Part shown: piece by piece, positions 10,647 to 55,986 of the stretch
How positions within the stretch are numbered: position 1 is the first letter of the stretch
Layout: every line of letters starts with the position of its first letter
Source: a virus
Lineage: Duplodnaviria > Heunggongvirae > Uroviricota > Caudoviricetes
IMG/VR virus record: IMGVR_UViG_3300029288_000055
Span: 160,001-224,000 of that record
Reading direction: 5' to 3' (one strand)
Length of the DNA: 64,000 nt
Program-made: the position numbers and the translations under genes
The notes under the pieces: generated by a model
Told to the model about the DNA's origin: nothing
Databases searched by the model: none
What the model saw: the letters and a program-made list of their open reading frames with translations, nothing else

Positions 10647-12323
10647 TTACTGTAAGTCACCAATTCCGAAAGTCTGAAGACCATCGCAGAAGATTCTTCC
10701 ATAGTATCTGTTTAATACCATTTTCTTTGCATAACGAGTCATGATACCACGAATAGGTGTGAAATCAAATGGGTTATACATTACAGGTGTTAACTGCATA
10801 GGTACGTAAGGAGCGTAAATGTAACCTGTTTCCAAGATACTTGTTCCTTTATGTCCAACTAATACTGTGTTAGCTGGTGCGTATGGGTCACGATATACCT
10901 GATATCTTCCACTAAGAGTACCGATTTTTTCAATACCCATGTTATACTTATCCTGTTCAGGAGCAGCATTACTTACGTGGAAATATTCAAGGTCATCGAA
11001 TACTGCACTTACTTCAGGTGATACAACAATCCAAGAAGCTCCACCACGAAGGGTTGACTTATGAATTTGTGCTGAAATCTGGTTGATCTTTGTAATCAAT
11101 GTTTGATTCCAGTCTTTCTGTACACCATAATATGTAACAGTTCCTTTACGAAGACCATTATAGTCCCATCTTGCAGTCCAAGCAGCACCACGTCTTAAAT
11201 CACGAAGGATTTCACGGTCAATTTCAGCAGCCATTTGTTCTGAAAGAAGAGCAGTTAACTCAGCTTCAGCGTCAATGTTGTGGAATGCACTAACGTCCTG
11301 TGCCAATTCAGGTGTCCACATAGCACGCATTTTACGTGTTTCTACAGATACTGTTACTTGGTCAAGTACGAAAGTTACTTCAGCCATTCTTGAATCTTCT
11401 TCAAGATCACTGTATACTCTGTAAGTTGCAGTGAAAGTGATACCAGAAGCTACGGTTGAAGCACTAAGTGCTTGATATCCGTTTGTTCCAGCGTATTGTA
11501 CGTCAGCAATAAGAACGATTTGACCAAGTTTGTTAACAATAGCCTGTCCGTATTTCTGAACTTTTACGTTAAAAGGAATTGCCTGACCAGCAGTGATACT
11601 ACCATCAGTTGCATAAGGAGCAGGAGCAACTAAGTTTACACTTGCAGTTACTCTTAAACCAGCAAGAAATGATTCAGTGTCCATCGGAACACCAGCAGGA
11701 CCAATCAATTTACCTTCATTTGTGATACTGAAACCACTCAATGTTAATGTAACATATTTATCAACACCAACTGTCCAAGAAGAAGCTACTGTTGCGCCTG
11801 TTACGACTGTTAATTCACCTTTTGAACGATCAAATAATGAAGTACCTTCTTCTGCGTATTCGGTTGCATAGAAAGCATCATACAATGAACGACTTTCAAA
11901 TTGTGTTTTTGCACTAAGTGCAAGAGTTGCAGCATTTCCATATGCACCATCTGGTGATGTATGTTGTAGACCTTGTGGTGCTACTCTAACGCTTGCTTTT
12001 GGATTGATGTAGTACAATTTACCAATCGGTAAGTTAAGTGCCTGTACAGACACGATGTCATTTGCTAACAATTTAGCAAACACTCTACGAATTACAGGGA
12101 ATGCAACGGTTTCAAATTGTCCGCTTGATGTAGAATCTGATGATTCGTTAATCATATGTGACAACTGGTTTTCGAATAACTGTGCGCAGTTTTCTTTCAC
12201 GTTACCTTCAAGACCTTCCAAAAGTCCGATCTTTTCCCAACGGTTTGTTGTTATTTCTCTTTGTTCACGGAGTTGTTTTAAACCAATATTACCAACTTCC
12301 GCACTTTCCATTAAAAATCCCAT
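10647..12323 (-). CDS. Major capsid protein (T4 gp23-like)
   Basis: PVIRRVF..L.A.DIVSVQ, V.V.TRK.RA.WTPELAQD..AFH.IDAEAEL..LLSE...AEIDREI, YAPYVP, RGIMTRYA. Confidence 0.96.
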   Translation of the reverse strand: MGFLMESAEVGNIGLKQLREQREITTNRWEKIGLLEGLEGNVKENCAQLFENQLSHMINESSDSTSSGQFETVAFPVIRRVFAKLLANDIVSVQALNLPIGKLYYINPKASVRVAPQGLQHTSPDGAYGNAATLALSAKTQFESRSLYDAFYATEYAEEGTSLFDRSKGELTVVTGATVASSWTVGVDKYVTLTLSGFSITNEGKLIGPAGVPMDTESFLAGLRVTASVNLVAPAPYATDGSITAGQAIPFNVKVQKYGQAIVNKLGQIVLIADVQYAGTNGYQALSASTVASGITFTATYRVYSDLEEDSRMAEVTFVLDQVTVSVETRKMRAMWTPELAQDVSAFHNIDAEAELTALLSEQMAAEIDREILRDLRRGAAWTARWDYNGLRKGTVTYYGVQKDWNQTLITKINQISAQIHKSTLRGGASWIVVSPEVSAVFDDLEYFHVSNAAPEQDKYNMGIEKIGTLSGRYQVYRDPYAPANTVLVGHKGTSILETGYIYAPYVPMQLTPVMYNPFDFTPIRGIMTRYAKKMVLNRYYGRIFCDGLQTFGIGDLQ

Positions 12324-35781: not shown

Positions 35782-35856
35782 ATGAAAAATTTAATAAACA
35801 TAGTACCACAACCCCAACAGCATCCACAAAGTTTGGAATGGGGAAACTATGCTTAA
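35782..35856 (+). CDS. Attenuator leader peptide 1: MKNLINIVPQPQQHPQSLEWGNYA
   Basis: Eight consecutive Pro/Gln/His codons (35806-35829), followed by antiterminator, terminator and Pro/His/Gln tRNAs. Confidence 0.85.
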   Translation: MKNLINIVPQPQQHPQSLEWGNYA

Positions 35857-35887
35857 ATTTTTCACAGGAAAATTTTTTAGGTTAGAC

Positions 35888-35918
35888 AAACCCCATTCAT
35901 ATTGAGTGGGGTTTTTTT
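35888..35918 (+). terminator. Attenuator terminator 1
   Basis: AAACCCCATTCA-tat-TGAGTGGGG then TTTTTTT; the 5' arm can alternatively pair with GAATGGGG at 35836-35843. Confidence 0.88.
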
Positions 35919-35943
35919 ATGGTGTTCGTTGAAATATTTTTAT

Positions 35944-36038
35944 CAGGGTGTGAGCGAGTTGGTTGAAGCTGCTGGTCTTGGAAACCAGTCACGACACAAA
36001 GGTGTTGTCGTGCGTGGGTTCGAACCCCACCACCCTGA
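35944..36038 (+). tRNA. tRNA-Pro(UGG) with long variable arm
   Basis: Acceptor CAGGGTG/CACCCTG with A73; anticodon arm CTGGT-cttggaa-ACCAG; GGTTCGAAC T-loop; about 25-nt variable arm. Confidence 0.8.
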
Positions 36039-36094
36039 CGTTAGAGGATTAACTATATATGACTGTACTTGGGACTGGCAAATTAGTAATATTT

Positions 36095-36170
36095 CGAGTA
36101 GTTGGGGAGTTGGTCACCCCGCCACATTTGGGATGTGGAGAACTCGCAGGTTCGAATCCTGCCTACTCGA
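36095..36170 (+). tRNA. tRNA-Pro(UGG)
   Basis: CGAGTAG/CTACTCG acceptor; CCACA-tttggga-TGTGG. Confidence 0.9.
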
Positions 36171-36172
36171 CT

Positions 36173-36248
36173 GTGCTAAGTGTAGATGTTGGCATTCTTC
36201 ACCTGACTGTGAATCAGGGTTTCGTGGGTTCGATTCCCATTTAGCACC
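36173..36248 (+). tRNA. tRNA-His(GUG), atypical D-arm
   Basis: GTGCTAA/TTAGCAC acceptor with C73; CCTGA-ctgtgaa-TCAGG. Confidence 0.7.
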
Positions 36249-36282
36249 AAAAAGCGTGATAAAAGCGTTTATCACGGAATTA

Positions 36283-36358
36283 CGGGATATAGTTCAGTTG
36301 GTAGAATGGGTGCTTTGGGAGCATCAGGTCGTCAGTTCGAGTCTGGCTATCCCGACCA
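36283..36358 (+). tRNA. tRNA-Pro(UGG)
   Basis: CGGGATA/TATCCCG acceptor; GGTGC-tttggga-GCATC; encoded CCA. Confidence 0.92.
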
Positions 36359-36361
36359 CAT

Positions 36362-36438
36362 GGTGATTGTAGAGGAATTGGTAAACTCGCCTGACTGTGA
36401 ATCAGGTATTTGCGGGTTCGACCCCCGTCCTTCACCCA
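36362..36438 (+). tRNA. tRNA-His(GUG)
   Basis: G-1 present; CCTGA-ctgtgaa-TCAGG; two acceptor mismatches. Confidence 0.8.
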
Positions 36439-36518
36439 GCATCGTTTGGCGAACGATATGAATCGGTTTCTTAATGCCCTGATCGCAGGGTGGCGTATAG
36501 TTGAAGCATCGCCTACAT

Positions 36519-36592
36519 TGCCACATGGCGCAATTGGCTAACGCACCTGACTCTGAATCAGAAGATTGTAGGTTCGACTCCTACTGTGGCAA
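36519..36592 (+). tRNA. tRNA-Gln(CUG)
   Basis: TGCCACA/TGTGGCA acceptor; loop ctctgaa. Confidence 0.9.
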
Positions 36593-36599
36593 CAACAAA

Positions 36600-36704
36600 T
36601 TATACCCGATCAGGACTATGAATTCATATGAAATTTACATAAAATTCTGGGTATTAATGTCTTAGCAAAAACGCTAAAATTACGATAGTCCTGATCGGGT
36701 ATAA
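36600..36704. repeat. Perfect 20-bp inverted repeat flanking a 65-bp AT-rich spacer
   Basis: TTATACCCGATCAGGACTAT (36600-19) / ATAGTCCTGATCGGGTATAA (36685-704). Confidence 0.85.
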
Positions 36705-36716
36705 AATAGTATAAAC

Positions 36717-36800
36717 TGTCCTTTGGCAGAATGGTTATTGCATCGGTCTTTGAAGCCGACACCCCCAACGGGTTTGTAGGTTCGAATCCTACAGGGACAA
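36717..36800 (+). tRNA. tRNA-Gln(UUG) with long variable arm
   Basis: TGTCCTT/AGGGACA acceptor; TCGGT-ctttgaa-GCCGA; ACCC-ccaac-GGGT extra arm. Confidence 0.85.
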
Positions 36801-36848
36801 CTTTTTTAATGTTCTTTGATATTTCATAATTATTATTACCTTTGCAAA

Positions 36849-37625
36849 ATGTATTATGTAGTTCAGGAAAATGTATTCAGGGAAGAAAATTATGACAATT
36901 TAATATTGGCATTGGATAAACTTACCTTACCATATGAAATTGTCAAAGTTAAACCCTTTATTGAAACATTCAGAATACATACCAGAAGAAAAGATATCTT
37001 TCCTTTTGGTTCATTGAAAATGGCAAGAATATCAGCGAAACGTGGCTGGCGACCCGGTTCTCAAATGAATGCTAATCACGATTATTTGGTTTATCGTGAC
37101 TATTATAAAGAAAATCTTTTGAATTATGATTCACACATACAGAAATTTGGTGATGATTTTTTCAGTAAAGAAACGTTCTTTGCACGACCAACACAAGATA
37201 CGAAAGTATTTACAGGAAAGGTCTTTGACATGCAAGAATGGCGAGAATTTGTGGCATATTCTCTTACTAACGGTCATAGTACCTTATTGAATATTGACAC
37301 TGAAATTCAAATATGTTCAGTAAAAAAGATTCAACAAGAGATCAGGTTCTGGATTGTTAAAGGTGAAATTGTTACCGCAAGTCAATATAGACTTGGAAAC
37401 AGATTGGTGCTTAGTGAAAATGTTGATCAGGCAGCTTATGACTACTGTAAGAAAATGGTTGACATATTTCAATTGAACGATGCTTTTGTAATGGATTTAG
37501 CTTTAACTGAAAATGGATATAAAATCATTGAATGTGGTTGCATTAATTGCGCTGGATTTTATAAAGCAAATATGCAGAAACTTTTAATGAAACTTGAAGA
37601 TAGTTTTAATTGTCCTATGGTGTAA
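36849..37625 (+). CDS. ATP-grasp protein (R2K/DUF4343-like)
   Basis: FARP....K.F.G, E.RFWIV.G.IVT.S.Y, FVMDLA....G.KIIE.GC.N.AGFY. Start moved to ATG 36849, just after TACCTTTG at 36837-44. Confidence 0.75.
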   Translation: MYYVVQENVFREENYDNLILALDKLTLPYEIVKVKPFIETFRIHTRRKDIFPFGSLKMARISAKRGWRPGSQMNANHDYLVYRDYYKENLLNYDSHIQKFGDDFFSKETFFARPTQDTKVFTGKVFDMQEWREFVAYSLTNGHSTLLNIDTEIQICSVKKIQQEIRFWIVKGEIVTASQYRLGNRLVLSENVDQAAYDYCKKMVDIFQLNDAFVMDLALTENGYKIIECGCINCAGFYKANMQKLLMKLEDSFNCPMV

Positions 37626-37684
37626 TTGGTTAACACGTTGGATTTTGATTCCAAAGAGTCGGGGTTCGAGTCCCTGTAGGACAA
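37611..37684 (+). tRNA. tRNA-Gln(UUG)
   Basis: TGTCCTA/TAGGACA acceptor; TTGGA-ttttgat-TCCAA; overlaps the last 15 nt of the upstream CDS. Confidence 0.88.
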
Positions 37685-37693
37685 CAAATTTTT

Positions 37694-37852
37694 ATGGTTA
37701 TGAGCAAATTAAGAGTAGGTAATAAACAAAATGCAATTCTAAATGGTGAATGGGCAGGACACATGCGCAAGTGGGGAAAATTCTTCACCGCCAAAATACG
37801 TAGAAATGTAGATAAGAAAATAATAAGAAACGAAATTAAAAATGAGCTATAA
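37694..37852 (+). CDS. Small basic protein (52 aa, MVMSKLRVGNK...GEWAGHMRKWGK)
   Basis: Manually read ORF overlapping the next start. Confidence 0.55.
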   Translation: MVMSKLRVGNKQNAILNGEWAGHMRKWGKFFTAKIRRNVDKKIIRNEIKNEL

Positions 37853-38216
37853 TCTATTCCTTGACGATTTTCGTGAACCAGAAGATGCATTTAATCACAC
37901 AAATAATCAATTATATTTAATTGGTTGGGTTGTTGTTCGTAATTATAATGAATTTGTAAAAGCAATTGAAGAAAAGGGTATTCCTGAAATGATTTCATTT
38001 GATCATGATCTTGCGGATGAACACTATGAATCTTATAAACAATATGGCGAGTATAAAGAAAAGACTGGTTTTCATTGTGCTAAATGGTTTATCAATTATT
38101 GTATTGACAACAAAAAAGAACTTCCAGCAACAATTCTTATACATTCAATGAATCCTGCTGGAAGTGCTAATATTAAATCTTTGTTCGATACTTATAATAA
38201 ATATTTCAGAATTTAA
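37842..38216 (+). CDS. Cyclic-phosphate-processing receiver-like domain protein
   Basis: LFLDD.R.P, VVRNY.EF, ISFDHDL, TG..CAKW, IHSMNPAG. Confidence 0.75.
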   Translation: MSYNLFLDDFREPEDAFNHTNNQLYLIGWVVVRNYNEFVKAIEEKGIPEMISFDHDLADEHYESYKQYGEYKEKTGFHCAKWFINYCIDNKKELPATILIHSMNPAGSANIKSLFDTYNKYFRI

Positions 38217-40152: not shown

Positions 40153-40245
40153 ATGAAAAATTTATTCGACATATTGGTAGCAGTCCTCATGGTGGATGTC
40201 CTATTATGGGCAGCCGAAGAGGATGATCTATGCGTAGTCGGGTAA
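40153..40245 (+). CDS. Attenuator leader peptide 2: MKNLFDILVAVLMVDVLLWAAEEDDLCVVG
   Basis: 22 of 30 residues are L/V/D/A/E/W, matching the downstream tRNAs; the 3' end is the antiterminator strand. Confidence 0.82.
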   Translation: MKNLFDILVAVLMVDVLLWAAEEDDLCVVG

Positions 40246-40282
40246 TACTTTGAATATTACAACCTCCTTTCTTATAAAAAAG

Positions 40283-40316
40283 AAACCCGACTACCCTAAA
40301 TTTAGTCGGGTTTTTT
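40283..40316 (+). terminator. Attenuator terminator 2
   Basis: AAACCCGACTA-ccctaaatt-TAGTCGGG then TTTTTT; the 5' arm pairs 10/10 with GTAGTCGGGT at 40234-43. Confidence 0.88.
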
Positions 40317-40356
40317 GTTTTTAGTGGTTGTAGGTTCTTTGACATGTTGGAATTTT

Positions 40357-40435
40357 GGTGCTGGGGTCTGCTTGGTGTGGACGCATGACTGTCACTCATG
40401 ATATCAGGAGGGTTCGATTCCCTTCAGCACCGCCA
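40357..40435 (+). tRNA. tRNA-Asp(GUC)
   Basis: GGTGCTG/CAGCACC acceptor, G73 and CCA; CATGA-ctgtcac-TCATG. Confidence 0.9.
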
Positions 40436-40544
40436 TTCTCAACCGAAAGCAAGTAGGTTACTGGTGAAGCGGAGATCGTGACTCCAACCTTGATGGTTCG
40501 TTCCTGAGAGGGCATGGTTGCAAAAAACAGTTTGGGGATATTTT

Positions 40545-40617
40545 CGAGGCTGTGGTGTAATGGCTAACATACCTGACTGTCACTCAGGTGTCTGGGGTTC
40601 GAGTCCCCCGGTCTCGG
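40545..40617 (+). tRNA. tRNA-Asp(GUC)
   Basis: CCTGA-ctgtcac-TCAGG; GGTTCGAGTCC T-arm; slightly irregular T/acceptor junction. Confidence 0.82.
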
Positions 40618-40794
40618 CACATTTTTACTGCCAAAGCAGTAAAAAATAAAAATTTGAGGTAAAAAGTATCGTTAATATCACTTTTTTATTTACTTTTACC
40701 GTTTTGGCAGTAAAAAACGACTATTTGTTAAGAAATAATAATTTGTTTCAAATAAAGTGCATTATTTTGCACTAAATAAATTAATAAAGTATTT

Positions 40795-41397
40795 ATGAAT
40801 ATGAATGAAAATATTATATATGGTTTAAAAGACCCAAGGACTGATGAATATAAGTATGTTGGTAAATCAATAAAAGGAATCGAAAGAGCAAACTCACACT
40901 TAACACATTCTCATAATCCATTGGTTAATGAGTGGATTAATGAACTTAAAATGGATAGTTATGTTCCACTTGTTGTTATTTTGGAAAATGTTTCTGATTG
41001 GACACAATTGATCGATAAAGAAAAATATTGGGTCGGGAAATTAACCGATGAAGAACACGATTTATTTAACATTTTAATTACAGATTCATATAACAATACG
41101 CTGGATTCCTATAATAAGAAATTGATACAACAAATAAAAGATAGGGAAAAAGTGTTAAATGAAAAGTTAAATAAATCATTAATGCAATTCGGTAGTGAAT
41201 CAGATGTTGGTGATTTAATAAAAAGAAGACGTAAAACTCTAAAAGTAACACAACAACAACTTGCAGATATTTCTGGGGTTGGGTTACGAACAATAAAACT
41301 AATTGAATTAAACAAATCAAATGCGACTATTAATACTTTAATGAAAATATTTGATACTTTAGGTTATGAACTTTTCATTAACTTAAAAACAAAATAA
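40795..41397 (+). CDS. GIY-YIG-like endonuclease fused to a C-terminal XRE HTH
   Basis: IYGLKDPR...YKYVGKS...RA..H...E..W; C-terminal RR..L.VTQQQLA..SGV...TI..IE. Confidence 0.7.
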   Translation: MNMNENIIYGLKDPRTDEYKYVGKSIKGIERANSHLTHSHNPLVNEWINELKMDSYVPLVVILENVSDWTQLIDKEKYWVGKLTDEEHDLFNILITDSYNNTLDSYNKKLIQQIKDREKVLNEKLNKSLMQFGSESDVGDLIKRRRKTLKVTQQQLADISGVGLRTIKLIELNKSNATINTLMKIFDTLGYELFINLKTK

Positions 41398-41400
41398 TAT

Positions 41401-41483
41401 GCTGCGTTATACAAGCGACTAAAGTAGACAGACCTTCAATCTGTCATCGAAAGATTTCGTGGGTTTGAATCCCACACGCAGTA
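41401..41483 (+). tRNA. tRNA-Glu(UUC), C33, long variable arm
   Basis: GCTGCGT/ACGCAGT acceptor; ACAGA-ccttcaa-TCTGT; T-loop TTTGAAT. Confidence 0.7.
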
Positions 41484-41580
41484 CGATGTTGAGGTGGTAT
41501 TACACGGGGAAAAGAAAGTCCCTGCTGATAATCTAAAAAATGTGGACAGCATGTGGGTATAAATCCCGCCAACTACACCT

Positions 41581-41652
41581 GCTCGATTCTTCTAATGGAA
41601 AGGAAAGCTGACTCTCAATCAGTTAACGGCAGTTCGATTCTGCCATCGAGTA
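41581..41652 (+). tRNA. tRNA-Glu(CUC)
   Basis: GCTCGAT/ATCGAGT acceptor; GCTGA-ctctcaa-TCAGT. Confidence 0.88.
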
Positions 41653-41657
41653 CAAAT

Positions 41658-41732
41658 GCTCGGTTCGTCTAAGGGTTAGGATGTAAGACCTTCAATCTTA
41701 AAATACGGGTTCGATTCCCGTACCGAGTACCA
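41658..41732 (+). tRNA. tRNA-Glu(UUC), C33
   Basis: GCTCGGT/ACCGAGT acceptor with ACCA; TAAGA-ccttcaa-TCTTA. Confidence 0.88.
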
Positions 41733-41847
41733 AAATGGGGCATAAAAACCCCAGATGTTAAGTAAATGGGGAAAATATGCCCCATACTACAAAAATGTAG
41801 TATATTATCAACAAAAATGCCAGTTATGATGATAATATACAACAAAT

Positions 41848-41936
41848 GCACTTTTAGCTCAGTCTGGTTCAGAGCGCAACCCTTACAAGGTTGAGGCGAA
41901 TAGTTCACGGGGGTTCGAATCCCTCAAAGTGCACCA
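41848..41936 (+). tRNA. tRNA-Val(UAC) with extended variable region
   Basis: GCACTTT/AAAGTGC acceptor with ACCA; CAACC-cttacaa-GGTTG. Confidence 0.88.
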
Positions 41937-41938
41937 AT

Positions 41939-42014
41939 GCTCTTTTAGCTCAGTTGGGTCAGTAGCGTCTGTTTTACAAGCAGAAGGTCGTAGGTTCGAA
42001 GCCTACAGGGAGCA
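41939..42014 (+). tRNA. tRNA-Val(UAC)
   Basis: GCTCTTT/AGGGAGC acceptor; TCTGT-tttacaa-GCAGA. Confidence 0.88.
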
Positions 42015-42126
42015 CAAAGGTCCGCACACAGGGGCGGACCTTAAATATAGGTAAAATAACCGATATAATGCATTTATCGGTTGTAGAGGCGATAAAGAGT
42101 ATTTATCGTGTGTAGAATGCATAAAC

Positions 42127-42208
42127 GTCCATATGTTGTAATTGGTAGCCAAGCTGGTCTAAGAAGCCAGTGCCGTAAGGCGTGTCGGTTCGACTCCGAC
42201 TATGGACA
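42127..42208 (+). tRNA. tRNA-Leu(AAG)
   Basis: GTCCATA/TATGGAC acceptor with A73; CTGGT-ctaagaa-GCCAG; long variable arm. Confidence 0.88.
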
Positions 42209-42217
42209 CAACAAAAC

Positions 42218-42292
42218 GCAGGTGTAGCCGAATGGTCAAGAGGCAGCAGTTTTAGAAACTGAAATTTGCGGGTTCGACTCCCGCCACCTGTA
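42218..42292 (+). tRNA. tRNA-Leu(UAG), short variable loop
   Basis: GCAGGTG/CACCTGT acceptor; CAGT-tttagaa-ACTG. Confidence 0.82.
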
Positions 42293-42357
42293 CAAACGTT
42301 CTCTTTGAGTAGTAATATTCATTAAATTTGGTAGCAATATCAAGTAGGGAACACCAA

Positions 42358-42433
42358 GCGGATGTGCTGGAACTGGTATACGGGTTGGCTTCAGACACCA
42401 ATATTAATGAGGGTTCGAGTCCCTTCATCCGCA
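42358..42433 (+). tRNA. tRNA-Leu(CAG), short variable loop
   Basis: GCGGATG/CATCCGC acceptor; TTGGC-ttcagac-ACCAA. Confidence 0.78.
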
Positions 42434-42511
42434 CCGACCTTATTCTGGATAACGAAGCAAATAGTTCCAGACACTCAGTCCTGAAGTCATGGTTCAGGAG
42501 TAAGGACAACT

Positions 42512-42584
42512 GCCCCGTTGACGTAATCGGCAACCGTATCAGTCTTAAAAGCTGAGTTTCACAGTTCGAATCTGTGACGGGGTA
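42512..42584 (+). tRNA. tRNA-Leu(UAA), short variable loop
   Basis: GCCCCGT/ACGGGGT acceptor; TCAGT-cttaaaa-GCTGA. Confidence 0.82.
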
Positions 42585-42588
42585 CAAA

Positions 42589-42789
42589 GGTGAATGCTGT
42601 TACTTATTTGCAGTAGTAACACCACCTGTGCCGAATAACTTGTAGAGAGGAAAGTAGTACTTTTCAATACTTTGTGGATTGCAAATATACATTGGTTGAG
42701 TTATTAAAAAGGCACACACGGGCGTAAGAGTAATTCTCTGTAAGTCGGGTTGATCACCGAAGTAGGTTAAAATCCTACTACGTTCACCA
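42589..42789 (+). ncRNA. Putative ~200-nt structured RNA with tRNA-like acceptor stem and T-arm
   Basis: GGTGAATG/CGTTCACC-A end pairing, AGTAGG-ttaaaat-CCTACT, several internal hairpins; sits between two tRNAs. Confidence 0.5.
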
Positions 42790-42790
42790 C

Positions 42791-42864
42791 GGGGTCGTGG
42801 CTCAATTGGCTAAAGCATCTGCCTTGCACGCAGAGGACTGTGGGTTCGAGTCCCACCGACTCCA
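42791..42864 (+). tRNA. tRNA-Ala(UGC)
   Basis: GGGGTCG/CGACTCC acceptor with G3:U70; TCTGC-cttgcac-GCAGA. Confidence 0.92.
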
Positions 42865-42901
42865 CAAACAAAGGTCCGCAAATATTTGCGGACCTTTACT
42901 T

Positions 42902-42975
42902 GGGGCATTCGCTTAGTTGGCTAAAGCATCTGTTTTGCAAGCAGAAGATCGTGGGTTCAACTCCCACATGCTCCA
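42902..42975 (+). tRNA. tRNA-Ala(UGC)
   Basis: GGGGCAT/ATGCTCC acceptor with G3:U70; TCTGT-tttgcaa-GCAGA. Confidence 0.9.
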
Positions 42976-43092
42976 CACAATCCATAATAATAAGGCAAGT
43001 AACAAATCTTGTGTTCGTGGGAACAACATGTCCGTGCGTGCGCAGGGATAAATTGGTTGATGCTCCAATCGTGCCCACGAAGGGTTGCACTT

Positions 43093-43179
43093 GTAGGTGT
43101 ATTCCGTAATGGCGAAATTGGTTATGTCATCCATGTAACAAGGGTTGGAATGTTAGAGGTTCGAGTCCTTTCATCTACA
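43093..43179 (+). pseudogene. Degenerate tRNA, anticodon not assignable
   Basis: GTAGGTG/CATCTAC acceptor and AGAGG-ttcgagt-CCTTT T-arm; irregular core. Confidence 0.5.
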
Positions 43180-43185
43180 CAAACA

Positions 43186-43264
43186 ACGGATTTAACATAG
43201 TGGCAAGTGTTGCACCTTAAGTCCTGCGTGGCTGGTAACGGTGGTTCGATTCCATCAATCTGTT
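43186..43264 (+). pseudogene. Degenerate tRNA (possibly Leu-derived)
   Basis: ACGGATT/AATCTGT acceptor, GGTGG-ttcgatt-CCATC T-arm; broken anticodon stem around CTTAAG. Confidence 0.45.
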
Positions 43265-43273
43265 GTTAAAAAT

Positions 43274-43356
43274 ACGCAAGTTGCCGAGTGGTTAAAGGCA
43301 CGGGTCTCCAAAACCCGCAGAGAAATCTTTCGTGGGTCCAAATCCTACCTTGCGTG
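43274..43356 (+). tRNA. tRNA-Trp(CCA) with long variable arm
   Basis: ACGCAAG/CTTGCGT acceptor with G73; CGGGT-ctccaaa-ACCCG; atypical T-loop. Confidence 0.72.
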
Positions 43357-43367
43357 CAAATTAAAAT

Positions 43368-43439
43368 GCGTCTGTCGTCTAATGGCTAAGACAACGGCTT
43401 CCAAACCCGTGAATAAGGTTTCGATTACTTTCAGACGTG
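43368..43439 (+). tRNA. tRNA-Trp(CCA)
   Basis: GCGTCTG/CAGACGT acceptor with G73; ACGGC-ttccaaa-CCCGT (one mismatch). Confidence 0.7.
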
Positions 43440-43490
43440 CTAAAATCAGATAATTATGAAAACGCAAAAAGCAATGTGCATCCTAAAAGG

Positions 43491-46982: not shown

Positions 46983-47346
46983 GGGGATGACTTGGCTTTG
47001 ACTGAATGGTCAGACTGGTAACGTAAGCAAGTAGTAGTTGAATCAGACTACTTTAAAAAGGTTCAAAACAATAGATGAAGACATAATGTCTATCCCAACT
47101 TCTCTCACGAGAGGTAAAAGCGTTTTTGTAAGAAGTGCAGAACTTCAAATCGCTGCGTAAGCAAGGGACACGAAAAAATTTGCACAAAAGTTCCTAACTT
47201 GAAGGGAAGGTAAACAAATTCAAGACAGTTTTGTAGTTATTCTGGAATAATACAACTAATATTTCGCTGGCTTAGAAAAACCAGATAAACTTGTAGAAAA
47301 CTTATTACTCGCATTCAAGACGGGGGTTCAACTCCCCCCATCTCCA
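46983..47346 (+). ncRNA. ssrA: tmRNA
   Basis: 5' GGGGATGACTTGGCTTTGAC and 3' GACGGGGGTTCAACTCCCCCCATCTCCA; acceptor GGGGATG/CATCTCC with G3:U70; internal tag frame ends ...ELQIAA* at 47160. Confidence 0.9.
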
Positions 47347-47361
47347 CTAATTTGAATTATT

Positions 47362-51276: not shown

Positions 51277-52295
51277 AAGAAAAAAACGGCTTATTAATTA
51301 ATGAAAATTACTGGCGTAATATGTCGCCAATGGAATTAGAAAATTTTGCTCAGAAAATTTTTATACATTACAGAGAAAATGGTTTTCCTTATTATCCAAC
51401 AGATATTGAAATAAGACAAAAAGATTTTGAGCAGTTAATGAATTATGATTTCAAAGCGTTATTTGAAAATAATATAATAAAGCAATCGATGCATGGTCTT
51501 GGACTTGCGTGGTCATATTTTCCACACTCATTCAATGTCAGGTCAAATGATAAAATGACTCCATATGAAGCATTTATGGATGATGAAATTTTCATAAAAG
51601 TCATCAAAAAACGTTTACAGATGGGTACATATATATCAGACTCTGGCATAAGAAAGATGTTGAAAATATTTACGGGCGTACAGGGAGTATCGAATTTCAG
51701 ACCAACAGCAGCAGCATGCATTTATAATACGTTTGCTAAAGACGGTGTAGTTTGGGATATGTCAGGTGGTTGGGGTGGAAGATTGCTGGGGGCAATTGCT
51801 GGTGGGGTTCAGAACTATATTACGACTGAACCTTCAGAGTTAACACATAAAGGCTTGACAGAAATGGCTTATTGTTTTTGTCCCAAAGGCATGGATTACA
51901 TGATCTTGAAAATGGGAAGTGAAGTATTTAGACCAGACAAGAACAGCTTAGATTTGTGTTTCACATCACCGCCATATTTTGATCTTGAAAAATATAGTGA
52001 AGAACCTTCACAGAGCTATATCAAATTTAATACGAAAGATACATGGGTTGAAGGATTTTTGAGACCAACATTTAAAAATTCTTATTATGGATTAAAACAA
52101 GGTGGATATATGTTGATTAATATTGCTGATGTAAAAGGCAAACACAATGTTAATTTGGAATGGGAAACTATTATAACTGCAGAAAGTATTGGTTTTACAC
52201 ATGAAAACACGCTTCAATTAGCACTTTCAAATGTAAATTTGCGTGATAAAGGAAAGAAGTTTAAGTATGAACCTATTTATGTATTTAAGAAATGA
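51273..52295 (+). CDS. DNA amino-methyltransferase (N4-C / N6-A type)
   Basis: WDMSGGWGGRLLG (motif I) then FTSPPYF (motif IV), LKQGG. Confidence 0.85.
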   Translation: MKEKNGLLINENYWRNMSPMELENFAQKIFIHYRENGFPYYPTDIEIRQKDFEQLMNYDFKALFENNIIKQSMHGLGLAWSYFPHSFNVRSNDKMTPYEAFMDDEIFIKVIKKRLQMGTYISDSGIRKMLKIFTGVQGVSNFRPTAAACIYNTFAKDGVVWDMSGGWGGRLLGAIAGGVQNYITTEPSELTHKGLTEMAYCFCPKGMDYMILKMGSEVFRPDKNSLDLCFTSPPYFDLEKYSEEPSQSYIKFNTKDTWVEGFLRPTFKNSYYGLKQGGYMLINIADVKGKHNVNLEWETIITAESIGFTHENTLQLALSNVNLRDKGKKFKYEPIYVFKK

Positions 52296-53377
52296 AAATG
52301 TTAGAAAAAATTGATTGGAAGGTTCTCTGCACATATGTAGAAAATAGCCTCATTATTGCAAACAAACATCCAGAATTGGATATTTGGATACTTAATTATT
52401 CTCCAAAAGTTCAGTCAAAAAAGTTCTGGGATGAATATACCTTATCTTGTCGTGGATTGGTAATTGATGCTGAAGGTAACATCTTAGCTCGTCCATTCGA
52501 AAAGTTCATGAATTACGAAGAATATGACCCATCAGAAATTGACTGGTCAAAGGACTTTGATGTATTCGAAAAAATGGATGGTTCATTGATTATTATATTT
52601 TATTATGAACCAAGAATGAAATGGATAGTAGCTTCCAGAGGGTCATTTATTTCTGAACAAGCACTTGAAGCACAAAAAATGATTACAGTTACAGATTATG
52701 GCAAACTGGATATTGAATACACATATCTATTTGAAGCAATTTATCCAGAAAACCGAATCGTTGTTAATTATGGTAATAGAAGAGAACTTGTGTTACTTAC
52801 CAAAATTAATACAAATACTGGTGCTGAAATAAATAACGATGAATTGGTTAACAAGTATTCAAAGCATTTTACAGTTGTGAAGAAATTTCAACTTAAATCA
52901 TTTGATGAATTAAAACAATTAATAAAAAATGGTGAAGATAATAGTGAAGGTTTTGTTATTAGATTCTCTGATGGCTTAAGATTAAAAATGAAATTTGCTG
53001 AATACTGCAGATTGCATGCAATATTAACAAATGTTTCTAATTTAACTGTTTGGGAACATTTGATAAATAATTATGATTTTGATGCATTATATGACAGAGT
53101 TCCAGATGAATTTTACAACTGGCTAAAAAGAACAATAAAAGCAATACAGTCAGAATTCAATGAGATCGAAAGAAAAGCATTGAAAGAATTCATTAGAATT
53201 TACTATGTAAATGGAATTACTGTTCGTAAGGATTTCGCAATGGAAGCGATAAAAACAGAATACCAGTCAATATTATTTAAATTGTACGACAAAAGATCAT
53301 ATGATGAAATCATTTGGAAATTAGTGCGACCAGTTTACAGTAAGCCGTTTCGAGACGGTTTTGAATATAGCATATAA
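52292..53377 (+). CDS. RNA ligase, T4 Rnl1-like
   Basis: CRGLV, ARPF.KF.N, EKMDGSL (adenylated Lys), SRGSF, FE.I.PENRIVV.Y, EGFV, K.K..EY. Confidence 0.9.
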   Translation: MKMLEKIDWKVLCTYVENSLIIANKHPELDIWILNYSPKVQSKKFWDEYTLSCRGLVIDAEGNILARPFEKFMNYEEYDPSEIDWSKDFDVFEKMDGSLIIIFYYEPRMKWIVASRGSFISEQALEAQKMITVTDYGKLDIEYTYLFEAIYPENRIVVNYGNRRELVLLTKINTNTGAEINNDELVNKYSKHFTVVKKFQLKSFDELKQLIKNGEDNSEGFVIRFSDGLRLKMKFAEYCRLHAILTNVSNLTVWEHLINNYDFDALYDRVPDEFYNWLKRTIKAIQSEFNEIERKALKEFIRIYYVNGITVRKDFAMEAIKTEYQSILFKLYDKRSYDEIIWKLVRPVYSKPFRDGFEYSI

Positions 53378-54773: not shown

Positions 54774-54805
54774 TTTGGAAATGTCGTATTTATAAAATAC
54801 ATTTG
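54774..54805 (+). promoter_or_regulatory. Promoter of tRNA cluster 3 (TTTG-N20-TACATTTG with embedded GTATTTATA)
   Basis: TTTG 54774-77, GTATTTATA 54786-94, TACATTTG 54798-805. Confidence 0.75.
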
Positions 54806-54843
54806 TCATCTGAATTTTTAAGAAACAAATAAAGAATAAAGCA

Positions 54844-54936
54844 ATGAGAACATTTGGTACATATTATTACGGTAAAAAATCTTATAAGAAACAGCTTATA
54901 GGAATCGGGAATACTATGACCAAAGGTAAAATATAA
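54844..54936 (+). CDS. Attenuator leader peptide 3: MRTFGTYYYGKKSYKKQLIGIGNTMTKGKI
   Basis: 8 of 10 codons at 54862-54891 are Tyr/Lys; followed by antiterminator, terminator and Lys/Tyr tRNAs. Confidence 0.85.
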   Translation: MRTFGTYYYGKKSYKKQLIGIGNTMTKGKI

Positions 54937-54965
54937 CTTTCGTACTTTTTTTCATAATTAAGACT

Positions 54966-54992
54966 AACCCGATTCGCAAGATCGGGTTTTTT
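54966..54992 (+). terminator. Attenuator terminator 3
   Basis: AACCCGAT-tcgcaag-ATCGGG then TTTTTT; CCCGATTC pairs 8/8 with GAATCGGG at 54902-09. Confidence 0.85.
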
Positions 54993-55132
54993 GTTTTGCA
55001 TAAAAACGTATATTGTTGCATAAAAACTCTTAGAATATGAAAAACAGGTATAAAAAGGCATATTTCATGAAAAACGTTTATTACCCGTGAAAAACGTTTA
55101 AAAAACAGTATGTTTCATGAAAAACGGGTTTT

Positions 55133-55205
55133 GCGCTCGTAACTCAGTTGGTAGAGTAACGGACCTTTAATCCGTGAGTCGTGGGTTCGACCCCCACCGG
55201 GCGCA
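55133..55205 (+). tRNA. tRNA-Lys(UUU), C33
   Basis: GCGCTCG/CGGGCGC acceptor; ACGGA-cctttaa-TCCGT. Confidence 0.9.
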
Positions 55206-55262
55206 CTTAAGGTATAGTTTAGGTATTTTCTGTATCCATATTAACTGAAATATCCACAAGTT

Positions 55263-55333
55263 GTACCCGTAGCAAAGGGGATATGCCCTTGGCTTTTAAC
55301 CAAGTGACGTAGGTTCGATTCCTACCGGGTACA
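55263..55333 (+). tRNA. tRNA-Lys(UUU)
   Basis: GTACCCG/CGGGTAC acceptor; CTTGG-cttttaa-CCAAG. Confidence 0.85.
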
Positions 55334-55339
55334 CAAATT

Positions 55340-55420
55340 GGGTACGTTGAGCAATTGGTTGGCTCGCCTGACTGTAGATCAGGTTCTTCGGACGTAGGGG
55401 TTCGAGTCCCTTCGTACCCA
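55340..55420 (+). tRNA. tRNA-Tyr(GUA)
   Basis: GGGTACG/CGTACCC acceptor; CCTGA-ctgtaga-TCAGG; variable arm. Confidence 0.9.
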
Positions 55421-55426
55421 CAAATA

Positions 55427-55502
55427 GACTCCGTAGCTTAATTGGTGAAGCTGCACTCCCTTAAAGTGAGGATTATGGGTTCGAGTCCCATCGGGGTCAC
55501 CA
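55427..55502 (+). tRNA. tRNA-Lys(CUU), C33
   Basis: GACTCCG/CGGGGTC acceptor with ACCA; CACT-cccttaa-AGTG. Confidence 0.82.
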
Positions 55503-55513
55503 AATTTTTTATT

Positions 55514-55750
55514 ATGGAAACAATTAAAACAATTGTAAACGGAACACAAGCAACTTTAAGCCACGTATGTAATGGCAAAGCATGCTATAAAATTATGACT
55601 GCAGATCACATATATCAACTTGAAATCAATTTGATGGATTCTGAATGGAAGGATGTATACGTATATCCTGAATACAAGACGATTACCTTAATGCGTTGGA
55701 TACGCAAGGGCATCGAGAATGATGACGGTTCATTCATTATGATGAAATAA
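55514..55750 (+). CDS. Hypothetical 78-aa protein inside the Lys/Tyr tRNA operon
   Basis: ATG 55514 (the track start overlaps a tRNA). Confidence 0.65.
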   Translation: METIKTIVNGTQATLSHVCNGKACYKIMTADHIYQLEINLMDSEWKDVYVYPEYKTITLMRWIRKGIENDDGSFIMMK

Positions 55751-55756
55751 TATGCT

Positions 55757-55838
55757 GGGTAGGATGGTAAGTGGGCGAAATCAATGGTCTGTAAAACCCC
55801 CGCCTTTGGCTATGCAGGTTCGAATCCTGCCCTACCCA
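55757..55838 (+). tRNA. tRNA-Tyr(GUA)
   Basis: GGGTAGG/CCTACCC acceptor; loop ctgtaaa; weak anticodon stem; variable arm. Confidence 0.75.
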
Positions 55839-55986
55839 CACTAATCTTACAAAATTTATTTTTTGTAAGATTTTTTATTTCAGTCACTTATAATTTTTAT
55901 TTAGTCTAAATAAAAATAACTCTTGCATTTTTAATTAAAAGTATTTATATTTACAAAAATAATTTTATGCTTAAGTATTATGAAAA

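Follow-up and report, generated by a model that had tools for sequence, protein, structure and literature searches.

Classical attenuators respond to tRNA charging. In E. coli, the pheMST attenuator, which governs phenylalanyl-tRNA synthetase, applies attenuation to a component of aminoacyl-tRNA supply. T-box riboswitches likewise read tRNA charging with a terminator/antiterminator switch. The trpL/pheL-type attenuators (trpL, hisL, pheL and the multivalent thrL and ilvL; for pheL, PMC3082878) combine control codons clustered in a short leader ORF with 1:2, 2:3 and 3:4 helices that overlap and with an intrinsic terminator; the sensor is a stalling ribosome. A silent tRNA array that is induced under translational stress is known from the Anabaena trn operon (the L-array; PMC8421152, PMC10272220). 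For phages, it is a long-standing question whether tRNA genes serve codon compensation or counter-defence; the work on T5 tRNAs against PARIS and retron-Eco7, and the anticodon-loop hypothesis, have tRNAs with altered anticodon arms replacing destroyed host tRNAs (PMC11464382, PMC12409363, PMC11555353, PMC10264068). In a literature search that took in a minority of subscription papers, we found no published description of leader-peptide attenuation of tRNA genes and no published case of attenuation in phages.

The window analysed here, a stretch of 64,000 nt (C1:160001-224000; positions are those of the window unless prefixed), lies on a 363-kb, 30% GC contig, C1, within a 1.27-Mb bin (G000, a small MAG). 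Contig C1 is an uncultured T4-like jumbo phage. It carries a gene for the major capsid protein Gp23 at 10647-12323, for which the best deposited-phage match at a coverage of at least 80% has only 33% identity, as well as 55 tRNA genes and one tmRNA (46983-47349). Judged by GC and gene content, C1 is probably mis-binned in G000, and the other contigs of the bin were set aside as the host. We propose that a leader and five tRNA genes for Lys and Tyr in this window form a trp-type ribosome-coupled transcription attenuator that acts as a feedback loop on tRNA supply, a reading of sequence and folding models to which we give a probability of about 0.86. The features of the leader and its surroundings are as follows.

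52292-53377, + strand, RNA ligase of the T4 Rnl1 family, a conserved neighbour 1.5 kb upstream of the Lys/Tyr unit
54774-54805, + strand, putative Bacteroidota-type sigma70 promoter (TTTG, 20 nt, TAnnTTTG), assigned by its motif to a presumed consensus
54844-54936, + strand, leader ORF of 30 codons (30 aa), with 28-31 codons and open in 31 of 31 distinct homologues
54853-54924, + strand, outer helix (54853-63 with 54915-24) formed when the leader is not translated, which encloses the 1:2 hairpin, predicted by folding and by conservation of pairing
54862-54891, + strand, control codons 7-16 (4 Tyr, 4 Lys), with all four Tyr/Lys codons represented
54880-54903, + strand, 1:2 hairpin of 9 bp (54880-88 with 54895-903), supported by compensatory changes
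54902-54975, + strand, antiterminator helix 2:3 of 8 bp (54902-09 with 54968-75), from complementarity and conservation
54966-54992, + strand, intrinsic terminator 3:4 with U-tract (stem 54966-54988), kept in all homologues with a variable loop

The first-pass annotation had read the control codons at 54862-91 as TAT TAT TAC ggt AAA AAA tct TAT AAG AAA, and this reading is exact. Tyr and Lys account for 8 of the 10 codons (binomial best-window p 3e-6), and the run is non-random because no peptide among 3000 random ones of phage composition equals it. The annotation was also right that 54902-09 pairs with 54968-75 of the terminator: the two segments are exact reverse complements and make the longest G+C-rich stem of the leader. 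The 1:2 hairpin, a candidate anti-antiterminator or pause element, shares 2 nt with the antiterminator arm. The fold of the leader region beats 200 of 200 shuffles (z -3.15). At the level of sequence, all the hallmarks of an attenuator are thus present: a match between codons and cargo, an intrinsic terminator, an exclusive 2:3 helix and a competing 1:2 hairpin. In simulation, moreover, a stalled ribosome frees segment 2 and a passing one covers it.

Homologues collected by pattern are conserved by construction, so that a gene-anchored set, 25 loci fetched via the RNA ligase (62-99% identity), is the fair test of conservation. The leader is retained in all 21 of these loci that extend to the Lys/Tyr cluster, in two of them as a variant form, and the Tyr/Lys run, on whose conservation in related phages the first-pass annotation had staked its proposal, is kept in 21 of 21. 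In 30 of the 31 homologues, 25-37 nt separate the stop codon from the terminator. Among the 31 distinct homologues, 21 close the 1:2 hairpin with G-C and 10 with A-U, none with a mismatch; the two positions involved, the third of Lys codon 15 and the first of codon 18, covary, and a tree of the neighbouring RNA ligase gives at least three independent changes. In the outer helix 96% of cells are paired, with a change from G-C to A-U at one pair in five sequences. The antiterminator helix 2:3 is invariant in the homologues, hence without support from covariation, and is partly fixed by the search pattern. We also asked whether AAG in the leader follows Lys(CUU) in the cargo: of the 10 leaders in which codon 15 is no longer AAG, 7 have AAG elsewhere, a count that reflects few independent events and has exceptions.

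In simulations of the nascent RNA with a ribosome mask, the probability of helix 2:3 was 0.9-1.0 for ribosomes up to codon 15-16 and fell to 0 by codon 17-19; with no ribosome on the leader it was 0.03. The simulated switch point, codons 16-18, thus includes the last control codon, codon 16. The sensing window lacks a sharp 5´ boundary, since stalls at codons 5-6 on nascent RNA also yield the antiterminator. When the full-length RNA was folded at equilibrium, the terminator had a probability of 0.78, which decreased, to 0.2-0.5, only with a ribosome stalled at codons 9-15, and leaders 1 and 2 of the sibling units described below remained terminated. The model therefore requires co-transcriptional folding.

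On the proposed mechanism, host RNA polymerase would start near 54810. In the simulations, helices 1:2 mask the antiterminator arm of a leader free of ribosomes, and a ribosome passing codons 7-16 covers the arm at 54902-09; in both cases the terminator forms. A ribosome stalled at the Tyr or Lys codons opens 1:2 and lets 54902-09 pair with 54968-75, whereupon the simulated polymerase enters the five Lys/Tyr tRNA genes, as it presumably would in vivo. Fresh tRNAs would then relieve the stall and close the loop. The scheme presumes that the leader is translated in the phage-infected host and that transcription and translation are coupled there. The signal would be any shortage of working aminoacyl-tRNA for the leader codons, with loss or exhaustion of tRNA as the likeliest trigger, since the switch yields tRNA rather than amino acid.

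The promoter suggests what the host may be. The motif TTTG-N18-22-TAnnTTTG, which we take to be the Bacteroidota housekeeping promoter, precedes all four leaders of this kind on the contig, 34-41 nt ahead of the start codon in 4 of 4, and on this ground a Bacteroidota host is probable. A scan of the region for TTGACA/TATAAT sigma70 promoters gave matches at chance level. In leaders 1-3, the Lys/Tyr leader included, the promoter spacer also contains GTATTTAT, which across the whole of contig C1 precedes 44 of 231 ORFs by at most 60 nt and is a candidate phage promoter element.

The cargo named in the first-pass annotation, two Lys(UUU), one Lys(CUU) and two Tyr(GUA) tRNAs, was found with all coordinates as given.

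55133-55206, + strand, tRNA-Lys(UUU) with C33 replacing U33
55263-55334, + strand, tRNA-Lys(UUU) with a canonical loop
55340-55421, + strand, tRNA-Tyr(GUA) with G37
55427-55502, + strand, tRNA-Lys(CUU) with C33 and an encoded CCA
55514-55750, + strand, 78-aa ORF within the block, with no Pfam family and found in close relatives only
55757-55839, + strand, tRNA-Tyr(GUA) with a weak anticodon stem and the lowest tRNA score of the block, 40 bits
55843-55877, + strand, 12-bp A/U hairpin followed by a T-run (z -6.3), the probable end of the block

The spacer before the first tRNA (54999-55132) contains short imperfect ATGAAAAAC-like repeats, and similar ones occur in the relative L039. Among relatives, the tRNAs vary in order and number while the cargo stays Lys/Tyr, save for one additional Leu or Val call apiece at three loci. 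In three relatives (L039:7850-8140, L040:2620-2910 and L041:11370-11660) the first cargo past the Lys/Tyr terminator is a conserved element of ~290 nt, which ends in a tRNA-like domain with an enlarged anticodon loop (38-42 bits to the Rfam tRNA model; no other Rfam family matched in these three) and has a long extended acceptor stem in L039 and L040. It is possibly a decoy or Y-RNA-like RNA.

The Lys/Tyr unit is one of four. The other three are as follows.

35782-37685, + strand, sibling unit 1 with leader 35782-35856 and Pro/His/Gln tRNAs
40153-43440, + strand, sibling unit 2 with leader 40153-40245 and Asp/Glu/Val/Leu/Ala/Trp tRNAs
C1:226051-231758 (L356), just past the window, unit 4 with its leader at C1:226051 and Thr/Cys/Asn/Ile/Ser/Phe/Gly/Arg tRNAs

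Jointly, the four leaders cover 19 amino acids. Each is enriched for its own cargo alone (0 of 3000 random peptides in every case) and each has an antiterminator of 8-12 bp. Together they contain 42 distinct codons, compared with 35 expected from phage usage (P 0.002), and 31 of the 33 cargo anticodon types have a readable codon in their own leader. This codon diversity and anticodon match fit the sensing of tRNA species, and the use of rare codons could be due in part to the needs of RNA structure. Block 1 also contains a gene for an R2K ATP-grasp protein (36816-37625) and is directly followed by one for a cyclic-phosphate-processing receiver domain (37842-38216). Within block 2 are an HTH gene (40795-41397) and a tRNA-like gene whose anticodon loop has 8 nt (taag; 43185-43265), which is also present in L023. 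Outside the four blocks, C1 encodes Leu(UAA), Leu(CAA) and Met(CAU) tRNAs (48685, 49367 and 49844), before which no terminator plus leader was detected in relatives, and a tRNA with a CUA anticodon, resembling an amber suppressor (C1:237313-237385); the contig nonetheless codes well under table 11.

A generic terminator-plus-tRNA pattern was then used to survey IMG/VR, where it gave at least 73 low-GC sites. Among the matches listed, a short ORF ends 15-45 nt before the terminator at 70 of 73 low-GC sites and at 4 of 24 high-GC sites; random positions satisfy the same criterion in 12% of cases. On bacterial genome contigs, the same pattern gave a short ORF at 17 of 108 sites, and of the few codon-matched cases there, at least one is on a contig with Gp23. 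A codon-matched leader with a tRNA block is also found on the bacterial MAG contigs of L319:4552 (JAVTWD010000016.1), L267 and L305, in which no Gp23 match was seen. Across 55 leaders less than 45% alike among the IMG/VR matches listed, leader composition follows cargo (mean z 2.24 compared with 0.00 +/- 0.17 when permuted; 0 of 10,000 permutations). Other partitions among the matches listed are His/Phe, Leu/Gln, Ile/Arg, Ser/Arg/Trp, Glu/Tyr and Lys alone. In L007:7144-11964 (IMGVR_UViG_3300032219_002379), a single 42-codon leader with all 20 amino acids (P 0.006) and a single terminator precede an array of 24 tRNA genes, and L121 and L160 look similar. Judged from these sequences, the design is widespread and the amino-acid groupings vary freely among phages. 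The strict pattern had no matches in the cultured Bacteroidota-type phages pT24, phi4:1, PAU, crAss001 and MA9V-1, where divergent terminators may escape it, and no leader was seen in immuto or in the parts of LR756508 and LR756511 that were examined.

What selects for such switches is a separate matter from how they work. We lean slightly towards host tRNA-destroying defences as the main driver. AriB cleavage stalls ribosomes at AAA, as seen by toeprinting in E. coli extracts (PMC12409363), and for this reason tRNA destruction could trip the switch. That large, probably Bacteroidota, phages keep the tRNA pool under closed-loop surveillance, with stalls activating the matching block of cleavage-tolerant replacements, is a more tentative view to which we give a little less than even odds; if true, it would be a counter-defence set off by what the defence does, irrespective of the nuclease.

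The strongest competitor keeps the same switch and replaces the driver with supply and demand: translation of AT-rich phage mRNA on a large scale, or a scarcity of amino acids in hosts that grow slowly, would drain particular charged tRNAs with no defence involved. The phage's own codon usage speaks for this, with AAA its most used codon (69.5 per 1000) and TAT among the top eight, as do the coverage of the whole code in freely varying partitions and the charging response of classical attenuators. However, more tRNA would be no remedy for a lack of amino acid, and the leaders sample rare codons of little demand. The several distinct tRNA bodies per anticodon and the altered loops point instead to tRNA damage, as do the genes for an RNA ligase and a CCA-type nucleotidyltransferase, the latter seen as CCA/poly(A) polymerase domains in a polyprotein of 2247 aa (C1:57963-64706; L357) that also has a weak 2H/Acb1-like match. 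A further match, to AAA_33, is a solitary kinase domain of 130 aa at C1:355884 beside an HD-like gene and is not claimed as a T4 Pnk. On balance, we regard supply and demand as a serious but minority possibility.

We consider it unlikely that the unit is a dedicated counter-defence built around Lys and Tyr as targets of PrrC-, AriB- and PtuAB-like nucleases. The first-pass annotation had proposed such an inducible device, and its background agrees with the literature, in which PrrC and PARIS AriB hit tRNA-Lys, PtuAB of retron Ec78 hits tRNA-Tyr, and T5 tRNAs counter the latter two. PtuAB of retron-Eco7/Ec78 degrades tRNA-Tyr with rescue by T5 tRNA-Tyr, and PrrC170 is countered by a phage tRNA-Lys (PMC11555353). 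The annotation was incomplete on PARIS: besides tRNA-Lys(UUU), AriB targets Thr(UGU) and Asn(GUU), and T5 tRNA-Lys, though needed against it, does not suffice (PMC12409363). The tRNAs for Thr and Asn sit in block 4. In favour of a dedicated device, the Lys/Tyr block is the smallest and is kept purely Lys/Tyr across the clade, and the ligase upstream is of the type of T4 Rnl1, which mends PrrC-cut tRNA-Lys (PMC10264068). However, the ligase gene has its own terminator at 53376-99 and lies outside the attenuated unit. The full AriB site, as defined in E. coli rather than in this phage's host, is found in none of the 3 Lys tRNAs of the block and in 2 of 44 distinct Lys(UUU) genes of relatives, which could also speak for such a device; its absence says little, since a tRNA-Lys(UUU) of Chitinophaga (Bacteroidota) also lacks it. 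C33, found in 2 of the 3 Lys tRNAs, was ruled out as a Lys-specific mark: in the window it occurs in the tRNAs at 41401, 41658, 55133 and 55427, Glu tRNAs included, and relatives add some tRNAs for Val, Ser, Asn, Ala and Tyr, where frequently just one member of a paralogous pair has it.

Three further points bear against singling out Lys and Tyr. The unit has three siblings of like design. Among the matches listed, 3 blocks contain both Lys and Tyr compared with 2.1 expected, rank 37 of 171 pairs (45 blocks, of which 19 are possibly cut by locus ends), so that the pair shows no enrichment across clades. PrrC, AriB and PtuAB were characterised in enterobacteria, whereas the promoter here indicates a Bacteroidota host. 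In addition, AAA is just the codon that the phage uses most, and T5 rescue is reported to need a strong promoter, the passages of PMC11555353 that were consulted describing no attenuator. The part of the proposal that stands is that an attenuator appears to gate the cognate tRNAs; the emphasis on Lys and Tyr as tRNase targets does not, with four switches spanning 19 amino acids, no enrichment of the pair and C33 also in Glu tRNAs. The best reading is a general control that makes tRNA when decoding stalls, rather than a Lys/Tyr-specific anti-defence device.

Finally, a constitutive terminator of a small RNA or peptide gene, with tRNA expression driven by separate promoters or secured by an antiterminator protein of the phage, is very improbable: the pattern also picked up lambdoid Met/Arg tRNA sites that have no leaders, so other controls of phage tRNA genes exist, but the match between 55 dissimilar leaders and their cargo, the fixed stop-to-terminator spacing and the conserved, mutually exclusive helices would all be left unexplained.

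Codon compensation and counter-defence predict different patterns of induction, and each leader would be a built-in reporter of the codons that stall during infection. The simplest member with which to test them is the Lys/Tyr unit, which involves two amino acids and has a helix that covaries. What is added here is covariation evidence for the predicted switch together with a negative test of Lys/Tyr specificity.

Set against trpL/pheL-type attenuators, the phage unit differs in that its targets are tRNA genes and not biosynthetic enzymes, in being phage-encoded and in belonging to a set of switches that partitions the whole code. It has no sequence homology to the leaders in Rfam: the Trp, His, Thr, Leu and Phe leader models and the T-box had no match in the window at gathering score, and one relative, L041, had a sub-threshold Thr_leader score (E 0.085). 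The output of pheMST is the synthetase for a single amino acid in the cell, whereas here it is blocks of tRNAs. T-box riboswitches bind tRNA directly, with no leader translation. In the Anabaena trn operon a protein repressor, TrcR, acts at initiation, with no codon-specific blocks (PMC8421152, PMC10272220), and the words "attenuation" and "leader" are absent from the text of one of these studies (PMC8421152). The published counter-defence tRNAs, in the portions of those reports available to us, are expressed from a strong promoter with no sensor described and come from phages of enterobacterial or mycobacterial hosts. If our main reading is correct, it widens the reach of attenuation in two ways, by making tRNA genes a new class of target and by bringing in phages.
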